Sequence record: OW849071.1
Reading direction: 5' to 3' (one strand)
Source of the DNA: a plasmid
Length of the DNA: 64,000 nucleotides
The notes under the pieces were generated by a model. The model ran no database searches and was not told where the DNA came from. It saw only the letters and a list, made by a program, of their open reading frames with translations. Positions 875 through 59,983 of the stretch are shown here, piece by piece. Each line of letters starts with the position of its first letter. The first letter of the stretch is position 1. Made by a program: the position numbers and the translations under genes.

Positions 875-960
875 ATAGAGCAACAGCTTCTATGCAGTTT
901 ATGAGGGCCCCGTTAATCTTTTCCTTCCGCCAAGATTGAAGAAGATTATCGGGGTTTTTA
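875..960 (+). ncRNA. copA: CopA-like antisense RNA (copy-number control), with -35 TTGAAG/-10 TATACT promoter at 840..868
   Basis: Position between copB and tap opposite to repA1. Two stem-loops (871-897; 907-954), the second followed by a T5 tract (rho-independent terminator). Loop II contains CGCCAA. Near-consensus sigma70 promoter immediately upstream. Confidence 0.45.
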
Positions 961-1068
961 CTTTCTGGTTCCGGGTAAACATCCACAAAACCAGCTCCCT
1001 GCCACCTTATGGTGTGGCCAGCCAAGAATTCTAAACGTTCAGTAATCTAGCACTCATAGCAGGCATGA

Positions 1069-1473: not shown

Positions 1474-2034
1474 TTAATACGAGGAACTCCAGTCTTTTCC
1501 CATCTCCCACCGAGTTTGCCAGTGCTGGAGATAGCGTTGAGCAACGACTGGTTCATCCCACACGACTAGCACGTTCTCTGAATTGAACCGATCAGCGGCT
1601 CGAGTGTAGTTAAAAGACCCCACTTCAACATTACGGCCGTCAGCAATAATGACTTTATCGTGCATGATTTTGTACTGCGACACTGTGCGAACCGGGATAC
1701 CGGCATTGACCAGAAGATTCATGGCCGCCAGACTCGCCTTGTTTTGCCTGCCTGTATTGGCTTTCCAGTCCAGAACCACTTTCACATCGAGACCACGCTG
1801 TTTTGCCCTGACAAGCGCGCCGGCGACTTCGGGTGAGGTGAAGGAATAGCCCATCAGCCGGATTTCCTGCTGTGCAGAATTAATAGTCTTCAGGACCAGC
1901 TGCAGAGCCGTTCCTTCCGGCGAATACCCCGTCTCGATGCTGGCGGCATACACGGCCGGAACTGGTGCAAACAAAGACAGGCTGATAAGCCCGGACAGAC
2001 AACATCTGCGGAGCGTACGGTTCATTTTTTTCAC
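1474..2034 (-). CDS. nuc: Phospholipase-D family periplasmic endonuclease (Nuc-like)
   Basis: Signal peptide plus HKD motif (IMHDKVIIADGRNVEVGSFNYT), ~186 aa like plasmid Nuc nucleases. Confidence 0.75.
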   Translation of the reverse strand: MKKMNRTLRRCCLSGLISLSLFAPVPAVYAASIETGYSPEGTALQLVLKTINSAQQEIRLMGYSFTSPEVAGALVRAKQRGLDVKVVLDWKANTGRQNKASLAAMNLLVNAGIPVRTVSQYKIMHDKVIIADGRNVEVGSFNYTRAADRFNSENVLVVWDEPVVAQRYLQHWQTRWEMGKDWSSSY

Positions 2035-2128
2035 AGTATTTCCTTAACGGGTGTTTAAGAAACGCCGGGAGCGGGGAAACTGGCTTTTCCCCGTTCCCGA
2101 GGTTGGACAACGACGCGATGCGGAGGCG

Positions 2129-2437
2129 TCAGGATTTTGTGGTATGACGAAACCAGTAGCAGACGGGTCCGTCGCCGGTATCGTGGACAGATCCCAGAAA
2201 CCAGCCATCATCATCCGGTGGCTCCGGTATCCAGCCACGGGCATTCGGGGCTTCATCCGTAAATCCGGCAGCGAAAGCTTCAGGCGCTTCATCGCGCATT
2301 GTTATCACAAAGCACTGGAGTTTATGGGTTCTGAGCCAGTAACTTAATTCTGCGGAAGTTTCACAGCCACTTCGTACCAGCGCAGGATGTGTCCAGTACC
2401 CCTGTTCATCACGTTTCACTTCGGCGGCGATAATCAT
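2129..2437 (-). CDS. hypothetical protein
   Basis: 102-aa ORF, ATGA overlap with upstream ORF; no recognisable motif. Confidence 0.4.
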   Translation of the reverse strand: MIIAAEVKRDEQGYWTHPALVRSGCETSAELSYWLRTHKLQCFVITMRDEAPEAFAAGFTDEAPNARGWIPEPPDDDGWFLGSVHDTGDGPVCYWFRHTTKS

Positions 2438-3083
2438 TTTTCATTCTCCTTGCGTTCAGTATGCTCTGTCGTTGAATTCATACCGGTTATGGATTTTTCG
2501 GCTGCATCGGCTCCGCGGTATTTCAGAAACTCTCCGACCTTTCTTACCAGACTCTCCGAATCCCGATCGCGTAGTAGTGGAATGCCGGCCTGCCTCAGAA
2601 CCTCTTCCAGCAGAATATCGCGCCGGATACGGTGTTTTTTCTGGTGTGAGGCATCATCCAGTTCAACTGCGCCGATGATAGCGAAGGTATGGATGTCAAC
2701 GATGACCACATCGCAGTGCCACTGTGATGCCATCCGGAAGAGTTGCCACCAGGTCCGGGATCGTGGCCGGATATGGGGAGAGAGTGTGGCAATATCTGCC
2801 ACCCGGACCTGAGGACACAACAGCCAGCGTGTTCGGCTGGTATGCCTCAGCAATGCCCGGAAAAAATGTTGTTCCCGTGGCGTCATCAGTGTGTCATTAC
2901 CCACCCAGACCCGCTGGCGACACAACCGTTGCTCAGCCTCTGAGGGGCGAATACCCAGGGCTTTCAGTGACCTCAGAACCGGGGAAGTCTTCGTTACTGC
3001 GCGTCCTTTCAGAAGCAGCACCAGAAATCCCAGCAAACTCAGCACAACAACGGTACTGCCCGCCATCATTAATATCTTTGCCA
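2434..3083 (-). CDS. DUF2726-like (nuclease-related/NERD-like) membrane-anchored protein
   Basis: ORF with N-terminal TM (MAKILMMAGSTVVVLSLLGFLVLLL) and C-terminal domain (WHCDVVIVD...AIIGAVELDDASH) typical of DUF2726; start chosen at Met 3083 rather than the longest ORF. Confidence 0.5.
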
Positions 3084-3139
3084 TGTATTTTATTCCCTGA
3101 TGTTCCTTTCTTTCCCGATGCGTTTTCCTGTCGTCTTCC

Positions 3140-3784
3140 TCATCTTTCTGTCCCTCTTCTGATAAGGCAGAACTCTGCCGGCAGCCTGTCGAGCAACGCG
3201 CGGCGAAATACATTCGGCAGTCCTCTCCCGGCTACAACATCAGCAATCAGAACTGATATGACGCTAATCTGCAGGAAGTGGCACAGGACAAAACCAATCT
3301 GATGCACCAGTTCCGCAGCAGGCATATTACGAAGAGCATTAATCAGCCGGATGGCATCCTGTGGGGAACCCCAGGCGAGAATACCGATACCGACCAGCAT
3401 CACCGCCGGCGTATACAACAGCCCCCGGCTGATAACCCGTCCGGTCAGGCCTGTAAGCTCACACCTTTGCTGGCGAAACACCTCATCATCCCGGAGGATT
3501 TCCCATTCCAGCCGGGCCTTTTCATGGCGCGGCACCTCGGCCACCACCTGAATACCGTCGCGAATACTGACCAGCGGTGAGACCTCTGGCTTTCTCATCC
3601 GGTCGATGTGCCGGGTGTACAGGGCAAGGCCTGCCCAGAACAGCGCGACAGATAACGCAACCAGATAAAATCCGCTTGCCCGGGATACAGGAGAAAATAA
3701 AACCATCTGAACCAGTGCCAGCGCGCAGCCGTATAAATAACAGAATAACTGCTGCTCAGGGCGCAGAATGAAATATCTGAACAT
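3140..3784 (-). CDS. hypothetical inner-membrane protein
   Basis: 214-aa ORF with several predicted TM helices. Confidence 0.45.
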   Translation of the reverse strand: MFRYFILRPEQQLFCYLYGCALALVQMVLFSPVSRASGFYLVALSVALFWAGLALYTRHIDRMRKPEVSPLVSIRDGIQVVAEVPRHEKARLEWEILRDDEVFRQQRCELTGLTGRVISRGLLYTPAVMLVGIGILAWGSPQDAIRLINALRNMPAAELVHQIGFVLCHFLQISVISVLIADVVAGRGLPNVFRRALLDRLPAEFCLIRRGTER

Positions 3785-16305: not shown

Positions 16306-19149
16306 CTATCCCTTTGGTTTCTCGTTTTCTAATTTTGTTGCCTTATCCAGTAGTTCTTTGGTTGAATCCGCGCCAGGCAGTCTGGTTTGATGCTCTTTCT
16401 TATCATTATAAGAATTTTTGAAATCATTTCCTTTTGTTTTGTGGTCATTTTCCAGTTCAGCATTCTCTTTTTTCACTTCAACGCCTTGCTGTTGTATGTT
16501 TTCACGGGTTTCCTGATGCTGTTGTTTATTCTCTGCAATCATCCCATCCACTTTCTGACCCACATTATCCTTAATACCAGCGTCTTGCGTCATGGCATCG
16601 ATACGACCAGAATTTTGTCCGTAGTCAGCCATTACCGAACCATTGTCCCCACCACCTGACACCCCAGCCATATTCTGTCCGATGCTTTCACGCCCCTGTT
16701 GATACGCGGCATCAACCCTGGGTTCAACCTGCTCTTTGACGAATTCACGCGCCAGTGCTTCACGCTGCGCCGCAATTTCAGGAGAACTGGTATTGGTCAG
16801 AATAGCCTCGGCATCCTGTGGAGCGCGACGCTGAACAAAGTTAGCAAACTGCTGAGAGAGATTCTCGCTCATCTGGCCAGTCATGCTCTCTGTGCGTGAC
16901 GCCATCTCACTGTACTCATGGCTGCGTGTCCGGCTGGTTGTATACTGGTCGTAGCTGTTTTTGGCACTGGAGAGTGACGCGGCAAACTGGTCAACACGCG
17001 AGCTGGCATTATTATCGGTGATATTACCCGATGTGGTGGTTTTGCGGCTGGTGAAGTAATCGGATGCTTCCTTAAAGTCTTTCGCCGCCTGGCTGCTGGT
17101 ATCGTGCCTACTGTCATGAGATTCCCTTCCAGATTCGGTTGTCGAGTCAGTAGAGCCACTTGATGCATTCGCTCCAGCACTAATTTTAGCCCCCCCTTCA
17201 GCAGTGAGTCCTGTAGCCCATTTACCCAGTTTCCCGACCAATTGGTCGCCACTACTCCATTTAGCATTACCATACATCTCACCTGATACCGTTCCCTTCC
17301 TAGACTCATCCATCAACTGCTGGAAAGACTCCTCATTACTGATGTTGTTGGCTTTCGCATTAGCAACAACCGCATTCCACATCTTGCTTCTGGCCATCGA
17401 ATCCTGCGAAGACTCAGTAGTATCGGCCCCGGTCGTTGTTGAGGCGCTGTTCCCTTTATTGGTGCCAAATTGCTGCAGACTATTCCAGGCACTTGTCACG
17501 CTGCTGTTATAGCCATGCAGCGCGCTTTCGGCCTGGACATCAGCCTCACGGGCCATCTGTTGCTGCGCACTGGCTATCTGACGACCGACGTTGATATCCA
17601 CCGGCAGTTTTGACATTGCACCACCACTGTCCCAGACCATCGAACCATCCCGCGTCTGCGTGCTCATGCCCCCATTCGCCAGCTGCCGCGACATCTGTCC
17701 GAAACTGGTTGTGCTGTTGGTACCCCAGCTGTAGCCGCTGACGTTCTCCATCTGCATGTTGGCGAAAGAGTAATTCCCGTCCACCACGCCGGAGGCAGCC
17801 TGCGATGTTGCACTGAGCCCCGATGAAGAAAAATGGCTGTAGGCACTGGAGAAAGCGGCCCCCATGCTCTTCACGATCCCCCACGACAAGGGCGGTATCA
17901 TCACGGCAATATAACCCGCGGTGGTCGCAATATCCGAGTTTTTGAGCTGAACCTGCGACAACTCAGAGAGAACGACCGGGACGCCATTTTGCTTCGCATA
18001 GTAGGCCATTGCGCTGTTCAGGATGGCGAACAGTAATGGCCACGTCTGCAGCCAGATAAGCGCAAACACATACCCCTTTAGCACCTGCAGCGTCATCATG
18101 TTAAACATGGCGGCCATCACCATGATCGGGAACATCCCAATCATTATCCCCATGATAACGGTCTGCATCAGCGGAAGTGTGCGAAGCGCCTGGTGCCCCA
18201 TTGTGGCCTGTGCCAGCCGCTGCTTTTCAAGGGATGATGTGTTAGCCATATTGACCAGACTGGCAGTGTCCCCGCTGCGGGCCGCATAACTCTGGATCCC
18301 ACTGCGCAGGGCGTTCATCGTGACGTTCTGGCGGATAATCTGCCCGGCGCTCTGTCCCGAGCTGTAGAAGTAATTGTAGCTGTCGCCAATCATCTGGCTG
18401 AAAAGCAGATCGGGATTAGGTTTGCCGCCAAACAGCTGACGAACATAGTAGTTCCAGGTTTTACCGCCTGTCTGAGTATCCAGCGCGAGAGCCGATTTCA
18501 GATCCCGTGAGGCCTCCTCGCATGTCTGGAACTGGTTGTTTTTGTCAAACACGCCACGCAGTGGACTCGGGTTTGCAAAAATCAGGGTATACGGATCAGG
18601 TGAATTCAGTAATTCCTCAAAAGAGTACTTATGATTGAGGAAAATATCGCCCATCACACAGTTTTGTACGTAATCGGAAAACAGCGTCGTAATCTGAGGA
18701 TTTTGTGACAAAAAATCCGTACTTTTCGCGACCAGATTACTGCCAAATAACATCCCCGTTTTACTGTACGTGACACTGTCCGGCAGCGCGAAGACCATCT
18801 CATAACTCTGGATAAGCGCGTTTCCTACCCGCGTTGTCAGCGACGCCGGAATGGCCAGACCAATAGGTACATTATCGACTTCATAGACCTGCGCAACGTT
18901 ACTGTAATCGATGATCTGCACAGGGGTGCGAATGACAACCAGCATAGAGACCAGGGTGAGGGAAAAGACCCAGCCCAAAAGGTCCATCACGTTGTGTTTT
19001 TTTACCCAGTTCCCCGCCACAATGAGTACCGAGATGGCGATACACATCTTTTCTATGGTCGACCATGTGCCGGTCTCCATAAACGCCGCAATCGCGTTCA
19101 GGTTGCCCCGTAACCAGTCACCGCCTGCAATGGCATATACCTCAAGCAT
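16306..19149 (-). CDS. traG: Mating pair stabilisation / pilus assembly protein TraG
   Basis: 947 aa, N-terminal polytopic domain and periplasmic C-domain; position and size as F TraG. Confidence 0.93.
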   Translation of the reverse strand: MLEVYAIAGGDWLRGNLNAIAAFMETGTWSTIEKMCIAISVLIVAGNWVKKHNVMDLLGWVFSLTLVSMLVVIRTPVQIIDYSNVAQVYEVDNVPIGLAIPASLTTRVGNALIQSYEMVFALPDSVTYSKTGMLFGSNLVAKSTDFLSQNPQITTLFSDYVQNCVMGDIFLNHKYSFEELLNSPDPYTLIFANPSPLRGVFDKNNQFQTCEEASRDLKSALALDTQTGGKTWNYYVRQLFGGKPNPDLLFSQMIGDSYNYFYSSGQSAGQIIRQNVTMNALRSGIQSYAARSGDTASLVNMANTSSLEKQRLAQATMGHQALRTLPLMQTVIMGIMIGMFPIMVMAAMFNMMTLQVLKGYVFALIWLQTWPLLFAILNSAMAYYAKQNGVPVVLSELSQVQLKNSDIATTAGYIAVMIPPLSWGIVKSMGAAFSSAYSHFSSSGLSATSQAASGVVDGNYSFANMQMENVSGYSWGTNSTTSFGQMSRQLANGGMSTQTRDGSMVWDSGGAMSKLPVDINVGRQIASAQQQMAREADVQAESALHGYNSSVTSAWNSLQQFGTNKGNSASTTTGADTTESSQDSMARSKMWNAVVANAKANNISNEESFQQLMDESRKGTVSGEMYGNAKWSSGDQLVGKLGKWATGLTAEGGAKISAGANASSGSTDSTTESGRESHDSRHDTSSQAAKDFKEASDYFTSRKTTTSGNITDNNASSRVDQFAASLSSAKNSYDQYTTSRTRSHEYSEMASRTESMTGQMSENLSQQFANFVQRRAPQDAEAILTNTSSPEIAAQREALAREFVKEQVEPRVDAAYQQGRESIGQNMAGVSGGGDNGSVMADYGQNSGRIDAMTQDAGIKDNVGQKVDGMIAENKQQHQETRENIQQQGVEVKKENAELENDHKTKGNDFKNSYNDKKEHQTRLPGADSTKELLDKATKLENEKPKG

Positions 19150-39211: not shown

Positions 39212-39931
39212 CTATTGATTTAACAAAAAATTAACACCATCGTTTAATATCGAAACCACATTCGATATAAACTTTCCATAACTTAGAGTATAGATCGATG
39301 ACATTATGATATAGTCACGATTATCAAAGCTCAGTTCCTTTTTTATTTTACTAACTGTATTTTTTGAGGTTTGCACCCCAACACCTGTAATCTTCGAAAT
39401 AGATGCATGAGAAAACCCAACCGCATACAGATTAAAGATAGCCCAGTCAGACTTTGCTGAACGCTGAATTCTTTCGATATATCTTTGCATCTTTATAGAA
39501 AAGTCATTGTATTCCATTGAAGGATGAGGCATCGGTTCATCTTCATTTATAAAAACCCATTTACTGTATGTATCTTCATTAATCGAGAACGTTTCAATAA
39601 AAACAGTCCAAAGTGAACCTGCCAACCAAATATTTTTAACAAGTACAGCAGAACCTTCTGAAAACGATTTCAGTTCTGACTGCATCAGTTCCAGTTTGAT
39701 CTCCAGGGAGAGATCCAGAAACCAGCTTCCAGGTGCTCTGGGTGTATCAAATGCTCCAGTTCCACCAGATGTTAAGAAAATTTTGTCAAAGGTTGGGCTG
39801 GTGTGAATTACTTCGCCCCGGGAATCACGAATAAAAGCAGGGCAAGATGAAATATTAAGCATCTCGCGCATAGAATGAATGGAATCTGTTTGACTGCGCA
39901 CAGCAATATGACTACGATCCTTCGCACACAT
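39212..39931 (-). CDS. traJ: Transfer activator TraJ
   Basis: 239-aa AT-rich ORF at the traJ position between traM and traY; C-terminal HTH-like segment (ISKITGVGVQTSKNTVSKIKKEL). Confidence 0.7.
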   Translation of the reverse strand: MCAKDRSHIAVRSQTDSIHSMREMLNISSCPAFIRDSRGEVIHTSPTFDKIFLTSGGTGAFDTPRAPGSWFLDLSLEIKLELMQSELKSFSEGSAVLVKNIWLAGSLWTVFIETFSINEDTYSKWVFINEDEPMPHPSMEYNDFSIKMQRYIERIQRSAKSDWAIFNLYAVGFSHASISKITGVGVQTSKNTVSKIKKELSFDNRDYIIMSSIYTLSYGKFISNVVSILNDGVNFLLNQ

Positions 39932-39934
39932 AGG

Positions 39935-40020
39935 CGCCTCCTGGAAAGGACACTATGGATAGTTGACGTTCGGGGGGACTAGCCCCGGACGTCAACGCTT
40001 CAACAAATTTTATTACAACC
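39935..40020 (+). ncRNA. finP: FinP antisense RNA (antisense to traJ leader)
   Basis: Opposite strand of the traJ 5' UTR; strong stem-loop GACGTTCGGGG-GGACTAG-CCCCGGACGTC at 39965..39993, typical of FinP/traJ SLII. Confidence 0.5.
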
Positions 40021-45484: not shown

Positions 45485-45715
45485 TCAGTTAAATGCGCGT
45501 TTCAGTTCCAGCGTGCGGAGTACCTGCCCGAGGGCGGTATTTTTCATCGCGGGGATGTGGACACCGCGCCCTTTGCGGTGACTTCTGGCGATATGACGCC
45601 CGAAAGCTCTGAGAGCGGGATCAATCTCCGGTGCGGTGATATCTGCGCGCAGAATGCGCGAATGACGACGGGGCTTTACAGCGCCTGCGGAAGGTGAAAA
45701 AATAGAAACGATCAT
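45485..45715 (-). CDS. hypothetical small basic protein
   Basis: 76 aa with strong AAGGAG RBS. Confidence 0.45.
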   Translation of the reverse strand: MIVSIFSPSAGAVKPRRHSRILRADITAPEIDPALRAFGRHIARSHRKGRGVHIPAMKNTALGQVLRTLELKRAFN

Positions 45716-45806
45716 AAAGTTGACTCCTTATGGTAGTTAACGAAGCCGGAAAAACCGTTCGTGCGATTTTTACGGCGTGGGAGAAGCAGGGTTTACCCTG
45801 CTTTTT

Positions 45807-48548: not shown

Positions 48549-48779
48549 TTATCGGCGATCTGGTTTATCACTGGCCACGGAGATACCAATGTACATACCG
48601 CTTCCCCAGATAATCTGAGAGAGCACAAATAGCCACTGAGGGACGTCAACAATCAACAGCGGAAGAAGAGCAACCGTCACGATTAAAATCAGGCGGCTAC
48701 CGAATTGCCGGCGCACCGGTTCAGCGGCGTCAACCGGGACGCCTGCATATCGCAGAACCTGCCTTAAACCCGTATTCAT
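48549..48779 (-). CDS. hypothetical small membrane protein
   Basis: 76 aa (MNTGLRQVL...) with two hydrophobic helices, downstream of the intron 3' end. Confidence 0.3.
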   Translation of the reverse strand: MNTGLRQVLRYAGVPVDAAEPVRRQFGSRLILIVTVALLPLLIVDVPQWLFVLSQIIWGSGMYIGISVASDKPDRR

Positions 48780-48962
48780 AATCACTCCACTCAGAATAAA
48801 TGCACTGTACGTCAGTATATTACATTTTATTAGATAACGATTCTCCGGACTGGCAGCGATCCTTCTGAAATTTCCCTGTTTTTGCAGGAACAGCAAATGG
48901 TTACAGACAACGGCAACAAGATGACTTAAAAAAAAACGGCCTCCGCAAAATAATGTCGCGGT

Positions 48963-50887
48963 AGGGATACCCGTTACCGGGTACCCCCCGCACAGATCCC
49001 GGCGTGCGCTATTCACGCACCGGGCTCCTGCCTTGGGTGTCTGGCGGTGAACCGCTCCACAGGCCATGGATGCAGAACCCGAACCTTCGGCAGCCATACG
49101 GCTGCCAGTCTGTTTGCTTTCGTCCATGTCGTATCATCCTGCTGGCTCCTGCGCCTCAGCGCCCGTCGCCAGAGGTCTGTTACGTATATCCTGAACTTCC
49201 GCATCATGGGATAGTTGCCCGGGACTGAGTGGTAGTTCAGGTATCCCTGAACCACTCTCCTGAGCCATTTTCCCTGTTCGGGGATTGAGTAATGCCAGCG
49301 CTTTCGTAGTCCGTCCTTGATCGCTTTCAGTGTCGCCGTCATCCTGCCCCGGCGTGTCTTTCGTATCAGCATGAACCTGCCACTACGATCTTTCCCACTG
49401 ATATGCGTGAACCCGAGGAAGTTGAACGTTTCTGGTTTACCTTTTCCCCTGCTGGCGCGGTTTTCGGCTGCGAAGCGGCCGAACTCCGTCAGTCGGGTTT
49501 TCTTCGGATGTACCGTGAGTCCGAACTCCTTCAGTCTGCGCTGCATGGCTATACGAAAGCATTGAGCGTCGATTCGCTTGTCGAACCCGATGACTATGTC
49601 ATCTGCGTATCTGACCATGACCACATTGCCTGTGGCATGGCGGCGTCGCCACTGATGCGCCCACAGATCGAAGACATAGTGGAGGTAGATGTTTGCCAGC
49701 AGCGGCGAGATAACCGCACCCTGTGGGGTGCCTTCCTCCGATGCCCGCCATTCTCCTTCCTCCGATGCCCGCCATTCTCCTTCCTCTGAGGTCCCGGCTG
49801 TGAGCCACTTTCGTATGAGCCTGATTACCCTCTGGTCGCCGATTCTGTGTTCTATGAACCTGATTAGCCATTCATGGCTTACCTTGTCGAAGAACTGACT
49901 GATATCGGCATCCAGTACCCAGTTTACATTGGTCCGAACCAGCCCTGTGGCCAGTGCGTCCAGCGCATTGTGCTGGCTTCGCCCGGGTCTGAACCCGTAT
50001 GAAAACCCCATAAAGTCATTTTCGTAGACTGCATTCAGGATCTTAACCAGCGCATACTGGACGATTTTGTCCTCCAGTGAGGCGATGCCGAGCGGGCGCT
50101 GTTTTCCATCCGCTTTCGGGATGTAGTGCCGCCTGCCGGGCTGAGCCCTGTAACTACCCTGATGAAGCCTCCGGTGCAGATCTGCTATGTTGACCTTCAG
50201 GTTTTCGGCGTAGTCCTTCCACCTGACACCATCAACTCCGGCAGCCGCTTTCCTGCTCAGGGAGAGGAATGCGTTCTCCAGTGCCTCTGCTGTCAGGAGG
50301 TGGAACAATGCGGTAAACCGTTCTTTCTTCCGCTGCTTCGCAGCTTCCCGCACGCGTGACAGCCTCTGTGACATACTTTCCCGGCTCTGCGTCCGGCGCA
50401 TGTGTGGCTGTTCCGCGTTTCCCTTGGCCCCGCTCCTTCGCTCCACTGACTCCGCTCCTTGCGGATTGTTCGCCAGATTCGCAGCTACTATGAGCGAGTC
50501 CGACTTCTCCTCTCCGTACATCACCGGCTTCGGCTCCTCGCCTTCCCGGTGCGGGCCATCTCCGGCACTGGCAGATGGTCAGAGGGGAGATCTCCCGGTT
50601 CCCGCGTAAAGATCGTATTGACATGCCAGGGTCTCAGACCCCGCCGGGTCCATATGGCACTCGCAGTAACGCACCCTATGATGTTGCCTTCCGTAAACAG
50701 TACAACGTCGGCACCCGGGAATTTAATATACATTTCGTGGCTCAATGGCTGGCCTGTCAACACCCCTGTCAACGCTTCGCCCCATACCTCACGGTATACA
50801 ACGCATGACTCGGGGACCCTGTGGATTGCTGGTCCTTCAATGGTCGGGGACTTTCACCCCTTGATCTTTACCGGTCTCCCGGCGCAC
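48963..50887 (-). mobile_element. Group II intron (ORF in domain IV; endonuclease-less RT, class C-like)
   Basis: 5' end GTGCGCC on minus strand. Domain V-like hairpin with AGC triad (GAGCCCGGTGCGTGAATAGCGCACGCCGGGATC) ~40 nt from 3' end. Domain VI hairpin GGGTACCCG-GTAA-CGGGTATCCC with bulged A; ends ..CTAC. Confidence 0.7.
49013..50401 (-). CDS. Group II intron reverse transcriptase/maturase
   Basis: RT motifs (..GTPQGAVISPLLANIYL.., YADD in MVRYADDIVIGF), maturase X domain; no C-terminal HNH/En domain; start uncertain (longest ORF from 50524). Confidence 0.85.
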   Translation of the reverse strand: MRRTQSRESMSQRLSRVREAAKQRKKERFTALFHLLTAEALENAFLSLSRKAAAGVDGVRWKDYAENLKVNIADLHRRLHQGSYRAQPGRRHYIPKADGKQRPLGIASLEDKIVQYALVKILNAVYENDFMGFSYGFRPGRSQHNALDALATGLVRTNVNWVLDADISQFFDKVSHEWLIRFIEHRIGDQRVIRLIRKWLTAGTSEEGEWRASEEGEWRASEEGTPQGAVISPLLANIYLHYVFDLWAHQWRRRHATGNVVMVRYADDIVIGFDKRIDAQCFRIAMQRRLKEFGLTVHPKKTRLTEFGRFAAENRASRGKGKPETFNFLGFTHISGKDRSGRFMLIRKTRRGRMTATLKAIKDGLRKRWHYSIPEQGKWLRRVVQGYLNYHSVPGNYPMMRKFRIYVTDLWRRALRRRSQQDDTTWTKANRLAAVWLPKVRVLHPWPVERFTARHPRQEPGA

Positions 50888-50888
50888 A

Positions 50889-50904
50889 CTGTATATATAT
50901 ACAG
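50889..50904. promoter_or_regulatory. LexA (SOS) box CTGTATATATATACAG upstream of umuD-like gene
   Basis: Perfect CTGT-N8-ACAG palindrome 22 bp upstream of the umuD-like ATG. Confidence 0.7.
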
Positions 50905-50925: not shown

Positions 50926-51351
50926 ATGAAGTTCATTCCTGCAGTATCAGAAGCCAGCATAGTAAAAATTCCTTTGTTCACAGAGCGATGCCCTGCGGGT
51001 TTTCCGTCACCGGCAGCAGACTACACTGAGTCTGAACTGGATCTGAATGAGTACTGCATTCACCGGCGCCACTCCACCTATTTTGTCAGGGCGATTGGCA
51101 ACTCAATGACTGATATTGGCCTCTATTCCGGCGATCTGTTGGTCGTGGATAAAGCAGAACAGCCGCGGCACGGGGATATTGTTATCGCGGAAATTGAGGG
51201 TGAATTTACGGTAAAACGCCTGCTTCTGACGCCGCGGCCAGCCCTGCAGGCGATGAACCCGGACTTCCCTTCCCTGTACCCGGATCCGGAAACGCTGCAA
51301 ATTTTCGGCGTGGTGACAGCCTTCATTCATAAAACCCGGAGGGCAGACTGA
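50926..51351 (+). CDS. umuD: UmuD/MucA-family S24 peptidase (pol V accessory subunit)
   Basis: ..[12 protein letters not shown].. (Ala-Gly cleavage site), GNSM Ser active site, TVKRL Lys; RBS GAGGG. Confidence 0.88.
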
Positions 51352-52622
51352 TGTTCGCCCTGGCTGACGTCAACTCCTTCTACGCCAGTTGCGAGAAGGT
51401 TTTCAGGCCGGATTTGCGCGGCAAACCTGTCGTCGTTCTCAGTAACAACGATGGCTGCGTTATTGCCCGGAGTGCTGAAGCCAAACTGCTGGGTATAAAG
51501 ATGGGAACCCCCTGGTTCCAGCTCAAAGAGGCGCAGTTTCCTGAAAAATTGTACGTTTTTTCCAGCAACTACGAGCTCTACGCGAGCCTGAGTAACCGTG
51601 TGGTCGCCCTGCTGGAAGAGCTGTCGCCCCGCGTCGAACAATACTCAATTGACGAATGTTTCCTGGATGCCCGGGGAATTGGCCACTGTATGGATCTGGA
51701 GGATTTTGGCAGGCAGCTGCGTGGGCATGTTCTCAGTGGAACCGGACTGACGATCGGTGTCGGCTTCGGCGCCACAAAAACACTGGCCAAATCGGCGCAG
51801 TGGGCGTCAAAGGAATGGCCACAATTCAGGGGGGTGCTGGCGCTGTCGCCCGATAATCCACGCAGAACGGCAAAATTACTCAGCCTGCAGCCGGTGGAAG
51901 AAATCTGGGGCGTGGGGAACCGGATAGCGAAAAAGCTGCACGTTATGGGGATCACCACCGCCCTACAGCTGTCGCTGACGAACCCTACATTTATCCGGAA
52001 AAACTTCAACGTAGTGCTGGAGCGCACGGTACGTGAGCTGAACGGCGAGAGTTGCATTTCACTGGAGGAAGCGCCGCCGCCGAAACAGCAGATTGTCTGC
52101 AGTCGCAGCTTCGGGCAGCGGATCACCACCTACGAAGAAATGCGCCAGGCCGTCTGCCAGTATGCCGAGCGCGCGGCGGAAAAGTTGCGCGGTGAGCGAC
52201 AGTACTGCCGGCATATCAGCACCTTCATCAAGACATCCCCTTTTGCGGTTAATGAGCCGTATTACGGTAACGTGGCCACGGAAAAACTGCACACCCCTAC
52301 CCGTGACACCCGGGACATTATCGCGGCTGCGGTCAGGTCTCTGGACAGGATCTGGCTCGATGGCCACCGCTACGCAAAAGCGGGGATAATGCTCAATGAT
52401 TTCAGTCCGAACGGCGTCGCGCAGCTGAATCTGTTCGATGACGTGCAGCCACGGCCGCACAGCGATGCGCTGATGAAGGTACTCGACGGCATTAATCATT
52501 CCGGACTCGGGAAAGTCTGGTTTGCCGGACGGGGTATTGCGCCGGACTGGCAGATGAAACGGGAGATGCTGTCACCGGCATATACCACCCGCTGGAAGGA
52601 GCTGCCGGTTGCCCGTTTCTGA
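51351..52622 (+). CDS. umuC: UmuC/MucB-family Y-family DNA polymerase (pol V catalytic subunit)
   Basis: [29 protein letters not shown]... hallmark Y-family N-terminus; start overlaps umuD stop (ATGA). Confidence 0.93.
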
Positions 52623-53196: not shown

Positions 53197-55149
53197 TCAA
53201 CGCCCTGGGTTGGATCTTCCGCTTGCCTCCACCAGACTTACATCATCACGAAGCAATGTCACCATCGCTTCATGATGTGCTGTTATCTGCTGATCGTCCC
53301 AGTTTGTATTTCGGGTGATTTCCGCCATTCTCTTGAGCTTGGGACTTTGAAGTTCAATTGTATCCTTGAAGTTTTCGGCCTTTGCTCTGGGGAGGCTATT
53401 GCTGAATTTTGAGTTCGCGCTGACGCTTACGAGCGCGAGGTTGCCAAGCAGGTTAAGGCTAGAACCTGAAACAACCGCGCCCGACTGTTCTTTGTCAGGA
53501 TGCTGTGGATAGAAGTGCTCAATGGAAGTTCTGAACTGAAATTTGAAATCTCGTTTTGAGGAGTCACTCAACAGAAGATAGTCGAGATACGAAAAGACGA
53601 TACGGCTGATACCAAACCCTTGTGGTTGCTGATCTTTCTCAAAGGAGAATGTCTCTTTAACCTTGCTGCGGGCATATCCCTTCAACAAATCGGCAAGATC
53701 CGCATGTTTCACGTCTCGAGGGGCTTTAACGGAGAGCCAGCGAAGAACTTTGGTAATCCAGTGCATCGTTCGCGGAGAAGTGTAGGTAATCCGAAGCATG
53801 GACTGAAGCAGCAATACATCTCGGGTATGTGGGTCAGCACTCCCGTCCTCCTCTAAGCTTCCATTGCTGGCCGAGAAAACATGGATGTACGTCGGGGTTG
53901 GCTTCTTGTCCCCGCCTCCTTTTTTCAGTCGCTGGAGAGACCAATCGCCATCGTCACCGATGTTTGCCGTGAATTGACGCTTCAAGATGAAGCCATCGAA
54001 GAGGTTGCGGCACTTGAGAAGCATAAATGCAAAACTACGCACCCAATCGGCTTTAGCATCGGGTACATTATTTACGGCGTCGTCAAATGACTTGATGAGG
54101 CGCTTGTCGTCAAGCAGGCCTTCGTCTTCGACCTCATCGCCTTTCATAATTCTTAGAACGTGTAGCAGAAAGGCCGGAAACTCAATAGTCGAACGAAACC
54201 GCTCGTTGCCCTCGTCTTCAGTGGAATTTGACTCGAGCTCTTTAGCGTATTTTGACAACGCCTCATCCAAGGACAACGATACCCCTTCGGAGGATTGCCT
54301 TGATGAATTGATGCCGGATTGCGGACGACTTTCCATTAGCGAAGAGAAGCTGGTCACCTCCAGCCAGGACCATTCATCACCAAATACTTTGTTTCGCAAA
54401 CTTGTGTCACCACGGGTCAGAGACATCTGGACATAAGAATCCATGTCAGCACAGGAATCCCAAACCCACGCAAAGCATTCGCGTTCATATTGATTGGGCA
54501 GTTTGCTCATCAGGCGAGCCTTAACAATATCAACCTGCTTGAGTTGCTGCCCACGAGTGTTCATGATCTCGAAGTAGCGATTGAGGTCGGTATTGGGTGG
54601 CAGCGAGGCACGGACGACAGTCACCTTCGTTAGCAAGAAATCGGAGAATTTTTCGCGTGAGCGATTAAGGTTTTCATTTTGTTTGAAGAACTGATTGATG
54701 ATGCTGTAGCCTTCATGAATGCCAGCATCTGCATTACTCGTGGAGCCCTGCGGTCGAACGTGCTCCTTAGCCGCCTCCTGTGCTACTCGCAGCAGGGCCT
54801 CAGTTGCCCGTGCGCGCGACTCATATTGCAAGTGGCCTGCATGGCCAACCGACGGCTTCTCACCCTCACCGTCTTGCTCCAGGAAGGTAAGAAGCAGATA
54901 GAGGGTTGTAAGTCGTTGTTGTCCATCTATGACCTCGAACTCATCCTCTCTACCCCGCTTGATTACAACAAGGTTCCCAAGAAAATAGTTGTCCTGGCCC
55001 CCTACCACCGAGTCTTGAATATCGCTAATAAGTTGCTCAATCTGTTCGGCCCGCCAAGCATAGTTCCGTTGATAAATAGGAATCAGATAATTGTCAGTGA
55101 ATAACTTGCCTACTGTTAACAGTTCAGGTTTCAACTCCTTCTTGCTCAT
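53197..55149 (-). CDS. GmrSD-family protein: N-terminal DUF262 + C-terminal DUF1524 (His-Me finger nuclease), putative type IV restriction/defence effector
   Basis: DUF262 motifs (LIPIYQRNYAWRAEQIEQLISDI; IDGQQRLTTL; FEIMNTRGQQL) and C-terminal DUF1524-like HNH (SIEHFYPQHPDK...LGNLALVSVSANSKFSNS); start overlaps upstream gene stop (ATGA). Confidence 0.85.
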   Translation of the reverse strand: MSKKELKPELLTVGKLFTDNYLIPIYQRNYAWRAEQIEQLISDIQDSVVGGQDNYFLGNLVVIKRGREDEFEVIDGQQRLTTLYLLLTFLEQDGEGEKPSVGHAGHLQYESRARATEALLRVAQEAAKEHVRPQGSTSNADAGIHEGYSIINQFFKQNENLNRSREKFSDFLLTKVTVVRASLPPNTDLNRYFEIMNTRGQQLKQVDIVKARLMSKLPNQYERECFAWVWDSCADMDSYVQMSLTRGDTSLRNKVFGDEWSWLEVTSFSSLMESRPQSGINSSRQSSEGVSLSLDEALSKYAKELESNSTEDEGNERFRSTIEFPAFLLHVLRIMKGDEVEDEGLLDDKRLIKSFDDAVNNVPDAKADWVRSFAFMLLKCRNLFDGFILKRQFTANIGDDGDWSLQRLKKGGGDKKPTPTYIHVFSASNGSLEEDGSADPHTRDVLLLQSMLRITYTSPRTMHWITKVLRWLSVKAPRDVKHADLADLLKGYARSKVKETFSFEKDQQPQGFGISRIVFSYLDYLLLSDSSKRDFKFQFRTSIEHFYPQHPDKEQSGAVVSGSSLNLLGNLALVSVSANSKFSNSLPRAKAENFKDTIELQSPKLKRMAEITRNTNWDDQQITAHHEAMVTLLRDDVSLVEASGRSNPGR

Positions 55150-58863: not shown

Positions 58864-59696
58864 TCAGTTAGTAAGGTCGGTTTGTTTACCTTCACATTTT
58901 ACATTTCGCCACCGTGCTGCAAACTCTGATGGCGTCTGATAATTCAGTGCTGAATGTGGACGACACTCGTTATAATCCTGCCGCCAGTCATTAATGATTT
59001 TCCTTGCGTGAACGATATCGCTGAACCAGTGCTCATTCAGGCATTCATCGCGAAATCGTCCGTTAAAGCTCTCAATAAATCCGTTCTGCGTTGGCTTCCC
59101 GGCTGGATTAAGCGCAACTCAACACCATGCTCAAAGGCCCATTGATCCAGTGCACGGCAAGTGAACTCCGGCCCCTGGTCAGTTCTTATCGTCGCCGGAT
59201 AGCCTCGAAACAGTGCAATGCTGTCCAGAATACGCGAGACCTGAACGCCTGAAATCCCAAAGGCAACAGTGACCGTCAGGCATTCCTTTGTGAAATCATC
59301 GACGCAGGTAAGACACTTGATCCTGCGACCGGTGGAAAGTGCGTCCATGACGAAATCCATCGACCAGGTCAGATTGGGCGCCGCCGGACGGAGCAGCGGC
59401 AGACGTTCTGTTGCCAGCACTTTACGACGTCTTCTGCGTTTTACGCCCAGGCCACTGAGGTGATAAAGCCGGTACACGCGCTTATGATTAACATGAAGCC
59501 CTTCACGGCGCAGCAACTGCCAAATACGACGGTAGCCAAAACGCCTGCGCTCCAGTGCCAGCTCAGTGATGCGCCCTGATAAATGCGCATCAGCAGCCGG
59601 ACGGTGAGCCTCATAGCGGCAGGTCGACAGGGATAAACCTGTAAGCCTGCAGGCACGACGTTGCGACATACCGGTCGCATCACACATCAGCATCAC
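58864..59696 (-). pseudogene. IS3-family transposase OrfB with -1 frameshift near the catalytic region (~59096)
   Basis: Frame breaks at GGGAAGCC (expected GGGAAAGCC). Restoring one A gives ..[43 protein letters not shown].. to a stop at 58864. Confidence 0.55.
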
Positions 59697-59719
59697 GGCT
59701 TCCCGCTTCTGGTCTGTCG

Positions 59720-59983
59720 TCAGTACTTTCGCCCAAGAGCCACCTGAAGCGCCTCTTTATCCAGCATGGCTTCGGCAAGCAGCTTCTTGAGTCTGGCGTT
59801 CTCTTCCTCAAGCGACTTCAGGCGCTTAACTTCAGGCACCTCCATACCGCCATACTTCTTACGCCAGGTGTAAAACGTGGCATCGGAAATGGCATGCTTG
59901 CGGCAGAGTTCACGGGCGGGTACCCCAGCTTCGGCTTCGCGGAGAATACTGATGATCTGTTCGTCGGAAAAACGCTTCTTCAT
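59720..59983 (-). CDS. IS3-family transposase OrfA (HTH)
   Basis: MKKRFSDEQIISILREAEAGVPARELCRKHAISDATFYTWRKKYGG... leucine-zipper C-terminus. Confidence 0.8.
   Translation of the reverse strand: MKKRFSDEQIISILREAEAGVPARELCRKHAISDATFYTWRKKYGGMEVPEVKRLKSLEEENARLKKLLAEAMLDKEALQVALGRKY

Follow-up and report, generated by a model that had tools for sequence, protein, structure and literature searches.

A group II intron of Klebsiella plasmids probably homes to the LexA operator by RNA-DNA base pairing

INTRODUCTION

Three types of target are described for bacterial group II introns, namely homing sites, terminators, and attC sites (2015 review, PMC4424553). Class C (IIC) introns have a compact ribozyme and no endonuclease, and their targets are short, dispersed palindromes that occur in many copies; these introns need a stem-loop, pair with an intron-binding site 1 (IBS1) of 3-4 nt downstream of the stem, and have no exon-binding site 2 (EBS2). 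RmInt1 and other IIB-like introns without an endonuclease domain (En-minus; classes D, E, and F) recognize their targets by EBS1, EBS2, and EBS3 and home to specific sites such as insertion sequence (IS) elements. Here, we present an analysis of a stretch of plasmid DNA of 64,000 nt (sequence record OW849071.1; the window refers to this whole stretch) in which a group II intron adjoins the LexA-type (SOS) box of a umuDC-like operon. We conclude, with a probability of roughly 85%, that this full-length, En-minus, IIB-like intron, which is a variant of Kl.pn.I5/Se.ma.I1, homes to the LexA operator by RNA-DNA base pairing. The anatomy of the intron, both of its boundaries, its recurrence at many independent boxes, and the covariation between EBS1 and IBS1 carry this conclusion.

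The intron, its name, and its location upstream of umuD are already known. Kl.pn.I5-1 was located at 119263..121172 of pKPN3 by Leclercq & Cordaux in 2012, who derived an anonymous homing consensus from three copies in a text that mentions neither SOS, LexA, nor umuD (PMC3522654). Se.ma.I1 is a further name of Kl.pn.I5 (PMC6764390), and the element is catalogued in the Zimmerly database. The "retA" of IncR backbones is the reverse transcriptase (RT) of a Kl.pn.I5-type intron (PMC11047700); "retA" and "ltrA" are the names under which this type of intron is known from IncR and IncFIB(K) plasmids of Klebsiella. Its mobility has been documented in a Klebsiella pneumoniae outbreak, during which Kl.pn.I5 inserted twice de novo, 24 bp upstream of sbmC in one case and adjacent to umuD in the other; LexA was not commented on in that report (PMC8269217, supplementary file 5), and a genome note on sequence type 11 (ST11) lists 11 intron copies in one strain but 6 in a closely related one (PMC6965571). 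IncF plasmids have also been described to carry a mobile "putative group II intron" (PNAS 2023, PMC10104558); it could not be tied to the intron in the window. A link between Kl.pn.I5-type introns and LexA boxes was not found in the searchable full-text literature, a scope that does not extend to subscription-only papers.

RESULTS

The intron in the window lies on the minus strand at 48955..50887 and is 1933 nt long. Both ends are set by empty sites: the two intron flanks were joined and used as a query against PLSDB, which gave 266 records with contiguous flanks, and two of these, the intron-free homologous plasmids L001 and L002, read ...CGCAAAATAAT^ACTGTATATATATACAG... (here and below, the caret marks the insertion point). 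The 5' end at 50887 is exactly the one proposed in an earlier reading made from the sequence of the window alone (the sequence-only reading). The 3' end proposed there, 48963, was 8 nt short; the empty sites place it at 48955, where the intron terminates in ...CCCUACCGCGAC and where the match to the Rfam model RF00029 also ends. Apart from this 8-nt correction, the intron-free loci show the junction that had been predicted.

The 5' splice-site motif GUGCG (50883..50887, minus strand), as read from the sequence, is conserved in all relatives. The domain I region (50629..50854, minus strand) gave a full-length match to the Rfam model group-II-D1D4-6 (RF02005, 184.5 bits, E=5e-54). At the gathering threshold, Rfam returned only domains I to IV, and the match to domains V and VI required the E-value mode: RF00029 aligns to 49029..48955 with 36.9 bits, which is 3 bits under the gathering threshold of 40 (local E=4e-5). 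Because this score is below the threshold, we additionally checked domains V and VI by covariation and found compensatory changes in 11 of 27 pairs of the consensus fold over 19 relatives. Domain V (48995..49027, minus strand) has the AGC triad, the 2-nt bulge, and a 5-nt loop (GAAUA), while domain VI (48955..48993, minus strand) has a bulged A and the 3' end ...CCGCGAC. The covariance-model check suggested in the sequence-only reading, therefore, finds these domains where an intron ending here should have them.

The intron encodes an RT/maturase of 503 aa in an open reading frame (ORF; 49013..50524, minus strand) that ends inside domain V and matches RVT_1 (E=8e-45) and TIGR04416 (362 bits, cut-off 300); the active-site motif YADD is at 49598..49609. 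A Pfam search of this ORF gave RVT_1 as the sole match and detected neither an endonuclease (D/En) domain nor a maturase domain. Together with the identification of both intron ends, this bears out the suggestion that the element is complete and without an endonuclease. RT homologues are 64-98% identical, including the N-terminal extension. The RT gene of the window contains a perfect 24-bp tandem duplication (49731..49778), which adds EEGEWRAS in frame directly before the conserved TPQGAVISPLLANIYL block and accounts for the length of 1933 nt compared with 1909/1910 nt in other variants. Non-coding sequence makes up about 420-570 nt of the intron, with the value set by the choice of ORF start.

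Over its full length, the intron is 91.0% identical to Kl.pn.I5-1 of pKPN3 (K. pneumoniae MGH 78578), which is sited at the same umuD box, while the flanks of the two introns are 99% identical. This difference argues that the same operator was invaded independently by two variants. The window copy shares with Kl.pn.I5 the architecture, the EBS1 and EBS2 loops, and the insertion point upstream of umuD but differs in 9% of its sequence and in having the 24-bp in-frame duplication; based on this comparison, it is best called a divergent variant of Kl.pn.I5/Se.ma.I1 rather than the same element. Identical copies are present in many Klebsiella plasmids, and relatives are present in 4198 PLSDB records and in 218 of 5426 complete Escherichia coli genomes, including 45 chromosomal places. 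An IncFIB(K)-type umuD locus is present in 1682 PLSDB records, and no more than 266 of these have uninterrupted flanks. A side observation is a recombinant intron in the chromosome of E. coli CUVET18-789 (L016, about 1480..3440), in which the 5' exon derives from the IncFIB(K) umuD box and the 3' exon from the IncR-type site; its first base is A instead of G, and it is embedded among TnAs1 and IS1 fragments.

More importantly, the intron recurs at LexA boxes. We collected sites from plasmids, E. coli chromosomes, prophages, metagenomes, and Betaproteobacteria, giving 151 copies and relatives, which clustering of the upstream DNA resolved into at least 51 unrelated loci; nearly all of them are cut at ...CTG-N10-CAGT^A. 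Among 91 distinct 24-nt 5' flanks that adjoin genuine introns with a shared 17-mer at the 5' end, 71 have CTG-N10-CAG at exactly -17..-2, while the chance of such a match at a fixed register is about 2e-4. The contact between the intron and the LexA box, which had been noticed from the single copy in the window, is therefore meaningful. Altogether, 77 of the 91 flanks end in CAG[T/C/G], and 71 of these 77 have CTG at -17..-15; the six exceptions have a degenerate left arm (ATG, GTG, CAG, or a 1-nt deletion) or are truncated by ISKox3. The logo of the 77 sites, TACTGTATATATA(T/A)ACAGT^AT, is equal to the LexA consensus, and the +1 base is A in 37 of 39 sites and G in the other 2. At sbmC of E. 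coli, ISKox3 (ISL3 family) lies directly against the intron and has replaced the left half of the sbmC LexA box (L012 239..1500; L218/L238).

Intron copies that are 91-99% identical to that in the window occupy several other boxes and are always cut after ...CAGT. These include a umuD box on IncR-type plasmids that is distinct from the one in the window (TACTGGTTATGCATACAGT^), the promoter of a colicin-like bacteriocin on a 12-kb ColE1 plasmid (TATACTGTGTATATGTACAGT^), the native chromosomal umuDC box of E. coli (TACTGTATATAAAAACAGT^ATAACTT), the native E. coli tisB/istR box (TTTACTGTATAAATAAACAGT^), the sbmC box, and the box of a prophage gene. The E. coli umuDC, sbmC, and tisB boxes, which we take to be classical LexA boxes, are occupied in some strains only. 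Because the box is kept in empty sites, it is the target of the intron and not its cargo. Exact-match scans of IMG/VR and metagenomes with the 5' 17-mer gave many further prophage sites. Relatives with 69-74% RT identity in Janthinobacterium, Burkholderia cenocepacia, Paraburkholderia, and other Burkholderiales also adjoin CTG-N10-CAG boxes, while relatives with an RT identity of ≤65%, as found by an RT-alignment scan of species-representative genomes, have other, lineage-specific targets.

An alignment of domain I from 27 relatives revealed a conserved hairpin, GCCGACG..GU[N6-7]..CGGAAGGC; in each intron, its loop is complementary to the terminal 6-7 nt of the 5' exon at which that intron is inserted. 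Over 23 lineages, EBS1 forms on average 6.15 bp with its cognate IBS1 compared with 3.38 bp with non-cognate ones, and 0 of 5000 permutations reached the observed value. In the window, EBS1 is the terminal loop (5'-ACUGUUU-3', 50695..50701, minus strand) of the hairpin at 50686..50712, and its ACUGUU(U), reading from 50701 to 50695, pairs with the ACAGT that ends the 5' exon; the commonest boxes have AAACAGT. Two members of the LexA clade illustrate the covariation: in L041, the exon ...TACAGG^ is matched by an EBS1 of CCUGUA, and in L023, the exon ...CACAGTA^, which is cut one base later, is matched by UACUGUG. A candidate EBS2, 5'-GUAUAUU-3' (50725..50731, minus strand), is located in the internal loop CGAAAUGUAUAUUAAAUU (50737..50714), where UAUAU can pair with the exon ATATA at -13..-9. 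Positions -12..-10 of the exon are TAT in 95-97% of the sites.

To compare occupied with unoccupied sites, we used 2.05 Mb of DNA from the loci examined. Where ACAGT follows an AT-rich hexamer, the left-arm CTG is lacking in 64 of 134 unoccupied sites but in only 5 of 70 occupied ones (p=1e-9). Thus, ACAGT is common outside boxes while the occupied sites are nearly all boxes, indicating that more than IBS1 is read. Among sites that match TAT..A.ACAGT, in contrast, full boxes make up 19 of 20 unoccupied and 55 of 60 occupied sites (Fisher p=1). The left arm is therefore no better conserved than the available sites would predict, and separate recognition of this arm, by a protein or as a hairpin, is not needed; we dropped it as a requirement.

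With respect to the neighboring gene, the intron was sense only at 14 sites, antisense only at 13, and in both orientations at 3, while 10 were unclear. This ORF-based call is crude, being wrong on E. coli umuD itself, and we use only the rough parity. In sense copies, the 3' exon typically runs directly into the ribosome-binding site and the ATG, and the promoter-operator pair is intact upstream (e.g., in L008). We also noticed head-to-tail intron arrays without spacer, with four copies 1909 nt apart in L124 (6089..11832; IMG/VR 2880021599_000003) and two copies each in L163 and L026. The junction in these arrays is ...CCCTACCGCGAC^GTGCGCC..., which looks like re-invasion of the occupied 5' junction with IBS1 and IBS2 retained and G at +1.

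In the window, the box core CTGTATATATATACAG (50889..50904) is the perfect palindrome that the sequence-only reading had described there, and it is intact in the empty sites. It has the form CTGT-N8-ACAG with an AT-rich spacer in the promoter of an SOS gene, making it a putative LexA operator; it is the sole LexA-type box with an AT spacer in the 64 kb. On the minus strand, IBS1 is at 50888..50894, IBS2 at about 50896..50900, and IBS3 is base 48954. The intron is 1 nt from the box, as had been stated, if the 16-mer core is considered; relative to the 20-mer consensus TACTG(TA)5CAGTA, the cut is inside the operator, between the outer T and A. The minus-strand arm reads ACAGT^A, while the plus-strand arm reads ACAGC^C and is mismatched at -1 and +1, which explains the antisense insertion.

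The box is located 21 nt upstream of the umuD ATG, and in empty sites it abuts a -10 hexamer. The empty intergenic region has a sole sigma-70-like match, TTGAAA-17-AATAAT (10/12), with a -10 hexamer that ends exactly at the insertion point. Its counterpart in the window, the predicted umuDC promoter TTAAAA-17-AATAAT (48926..48954, plus strand), is identified by its match to the sigma-70 consensus and is followed at the next base by the intron. Accordingly, both hexamers are now 1.9 kb from the operator and from umuD, while the operator stays with umuDC. The displacement of a -35 element by 1.9 kb had been anticipated but was understated, as the whole predicted promoter is cut off flush with the -10 hexamer. 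The -35 hexamer itself is TTGAAA in empty sites (L001 1864..1869), TTGAAT in pKPN3 (L317), and TTAAAA in the window (48926..48931); these differences may reflect drift after disconnection from the gene or lineage noise only. No replacement promoter was predicted at the intron-box junction by a consensus scan, which also misses the known umuDC promoter of E. coli. A candidate substitute, ATGGCA-17-TATGAT (50654..50682), was rejected because it is at chance level. A terminator-like hairpin with a T-poor tail, GGCAGCC-ATAC-GGCTGCC (49089..49106, plus strand), is antisense to the intron and weak; it lies in the path of read-through from the displaced promoter, and the number of such matches is within chance expectation.

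The umuD-like gene (50926..51351, plus strand; Peptidase_S24, NF007621 145 bits) encodes the autoproteolytic subunit of polymerase V (Pol V), and the umuC-like gene (51351..52622, plus strand; IMS, IMS_C, and DUF4113, NF002955 804 bits) encodes the Y-family polymerase; both reading frames are intact. Downstream of umuC is an ORF of 650 aa (53197..55149, minus strand), annotated in identical plasmids as a DUF262 domain protein, and between the two is a small gene annotated as "plasmid stabilization protein." The next gene downstream on the intron strand is a small hypothetical ORF (48549..48782, minus strand) that is annotated in homologous plasmids and matched no family in a search with protein-family profiles. 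The window is DNA of a Klebsiella-type IncF plasmid, with identical DNA in many IncFIB/IncFII plasmids of K. pneumoniae. Rfam matches to the backbone markers CopA (875..963), AS-traG (18345..18430), FinP (39925..40002), AS-pc01 (45710..45806), and an IS1222-type frameshift element on the minus strand (59636..59753) were also found.

DISCUSSION

Based on these comparisons, we suggest that the SOS box is recognized by pairing of its right arm and its spacer with the intron RNA. In this model, EBS1 ACUGUU(U) would pair with (AA)ACAGT at -7..-1, the UAUAU of the EBS2-type loop with ATATA at about -13..-9, and an intron U with the A (rarely G) at +1. Reverse splicing would then separate the T from the A in ...CAGT^A, where TACTG(TA)5CAGTA has its outer edge. 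Being a palindrome, the box offers this target on both strands, and the orientation would follow from whichever arm is the better match to ACAGT^A. A sense copy would be located at the very 5' end of the SOS transcript and, consequently, would be repressed by LexA, induced by DNA damage, and spliced out. An antisense copy, as in the window, would lie between promoter and operator.

With regard to classification, the intron resembles class C introns in lacking an endonuclease, in its compact ribozyme, and in its short, dispersed, palindromic target that occurs in many copies. The sequence-only reading had considered it class C-like and had proposed that the palindromic operator mimics a hairpin, such that the intron recognizes a stem-loop in single-stranded DNA (ssDNA) and inserts just after it. 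The palindromic target, the lack of an endonuclease domain, and the small non-coding part of the intron would fit this idea, as would acidobacterial relatives that also lie flush after a covarying hairpin repeat. However, the 3' arm of the palindrome serves as IBS1, and a hairpin would sequester the pairing target; the boxes fold weakly as ssDNA (-1.8 to -4.0 kcal/mol) and have no T-tract, unlike the stable stem-loop of a terminator or attC site upstream of IBS1 in IIC introns; sites with a degenerate left arm (ATG, GTG, or a 1-nt deletion) are still occupied; and full boxes are not in excess among the occupied half-site matches. Moreover, EBS1 forms 5-7 bp and its 6-7 nt covary with the exon, an internal loop is a candidate for EBS2, and the 5-nt loop of domain V is a trait of classes E and F. 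For these reasons, we consider hairpin mimicry very unlikely and do not retain the class C assignment. Rather, the absence of a D/En domain, a compact ribozyme within the 450-700 nt of classes E and F, and the 5-nt domain V loop are traits that the intron shares with classes E and F, for which they have been described (Nagy et al., PMC3753933), and make it a candidate member of these classes. As in RmInt1-type introns, which are likewise En-minus, priming would presumably come from replication; the window intron differs from them in homing to an operator that is common to many unrelated genes and replicons.

More distant relatives are present in Bradyrhizobium and in metagenome-assembled genomes (MAGs) of Bryobacterales/Solibacteraceae, and the copies at LexA boxes are about 1.9 kb. 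Class F/g3 introns of 1.91-1.94 kb have been described in Nitrobacter, Bradyrhizobium, and Solibacter (Toro 2013), and we take the resemblance in hosts and sizes as a lead only. In five Acidobacteriota MAGs (L059, L065, L068, L071, and L073), relatives with about 57% RT identity lie flush after a dispersed covarying hairpin, CAGACCTC-N6-8-GAGGTCTG^, with the insertion site about 515 nt upstream of the RT match and an EBS1 of CAGACC that pairs with the 3' arm of the hairpin. Introns of this family may more widely target short palindromic repeats through their 3' arm.

Two further explanations of the recurrence at SOS boxes concern the history of the copies rather than their targeting. The intron could insert at any short ACAGT^A match, with copies persisting only at SOS boxes, where sites are non-coding, harmless, and transcribed upon induction. 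Selection would indeed remove insertions in coding sequences, propagation would be open to sense copies located behind an SOS promoter, and IBS1 alone comprises just 5-7 nt. Nevertheless, AT-rich-preceded ACAGT is common outside boxes (CTG lacking in 64/134 unoccupied versus 5/70 occupied), antisense copies are no rarer than sense copies although they gain no SOS promoter, the exon is conserved at 95-97% at positions -12..-10 and matches the EBS2 loop there, and both de novo insertions in the outbreak were at SOS genes (PMC8269217). Altogether, these observations make survivorship unlikely. Alternatively, a single ancestral insertion at a umuD box could have been spread by plasmid descent and recombination, or the box could be carried along by the intron, and thousands of plasmids do share the same two umuD sites. 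This explanation is at odds with the at least 51 unrelated clusters of flanks, the occupation of native E. coli umuDC, sbmC, and tisB boxes in some strains only, the retention of the box at intron-free sites, and the presence of introns with 9% divergence in the same box within 99%-identical flanks; we regard it as highly improbable.

Several points weigh against homing to the LexA operator by base pairing or limit its extent. Reverse splicing into the box, binding of LexA, and transcription are predicted from sequence comparison; the precise empty sites and the published de novo insertions of Kl.pn.I5 (PMC8269217) would fit splicing and retrohoming activity but are indirect. The covariation of the EBS2-type loop is weak across all lineages (4.37 bp versus 3.79 bp, p=0.004) and uninformative within the LexA clade, in which all spacers are AT-rich. 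Prophages and plasmids are overrepresented among the collected sites, and those sites that are homologous count as independent only in part. The solved RTs of IIC, IIB, and IIA introns are about equally distant from that of the window intron (E 8e-40 to 7e-32) and do not separate the classes. With sense and antisense copies about equally frequent, SOS-coupled expression cannot be the sole factor that maintains the copies. Finally, the consensus scan predicted no promoter upstream of the intron on its own strand in the window, and this copy may be transcriptionally quiet and inactive; all promoter calls are consensus matches from the scan that missed the known E. coli umuDC promoter.

For the plasmid-borne umuDC operon, the predicted arrangement suggests that the transcript of the displaced promoter must cross the entire antisense intron to reach umuDC and that LexA would no longer be able to occlude this promoter. 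As already pointed out in the sequence-only reading, splicing cannot repair this transcript because the intron is antisense to umuDC. We infer that Pol V expression from the window copy is either uncoupled from SOS control or silenced.

Integron integrases, SXT and other integrative and conjugative elements (ICEs), and lambdoid and P2-like prophages are coupled to the SOS response in their mobility or expression by LexA boxes. While these elements carry their own LexA-regulated promoter, the window intron inserts into pre-existing host operators. On balance, we favor the view that a clade of En-minus, IIB-like introns of Gamma- and Betaproteobacteria, in which RT identity goes down to about 69%, has come to use the LexA operator for homing, which would be a fourth kind of target, and that its sense copies are SOS inducible while its antisense copies disconnect SOS genes. 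If so, each cell would provide dozens of safe and conserved insertion sites, distributed over chromosomes, plasmids, and prophages, and the occurrence of CTGT-N8-ACAG operators in both Beta- and Gammaproteobacteria would explain the host range. Bursts in copy number, as from 6 to 11 in the ST11 strains, would also be explained. The ribonucleoprotein of a sense copy would be induced by DNA damage or conjugation, at a time when ssDNA and stalled forks are plentiful. From a practical point of view, annotators could recognize copies and their boundaries, and the intron, which has a defined natural site, could be developed into a vector that can be retargeted. More generally, a retroelement would here be guided by its RNA to a transcription factor binding site, with its position tied to a stress regulon. 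Its orientation should decide whether a gene is regulated by LexA and its transcript spliced or whether the gene is severed from its promoter. Antisense insertion would have disconnected plasmid Pol V in thousands of Klebsiella resistance plasmids, and with so few of the umuD loci uninterrupted, the regulation of the mutagenic polymerase on K. pneumoniae plasmids may differ widely from the textbook.

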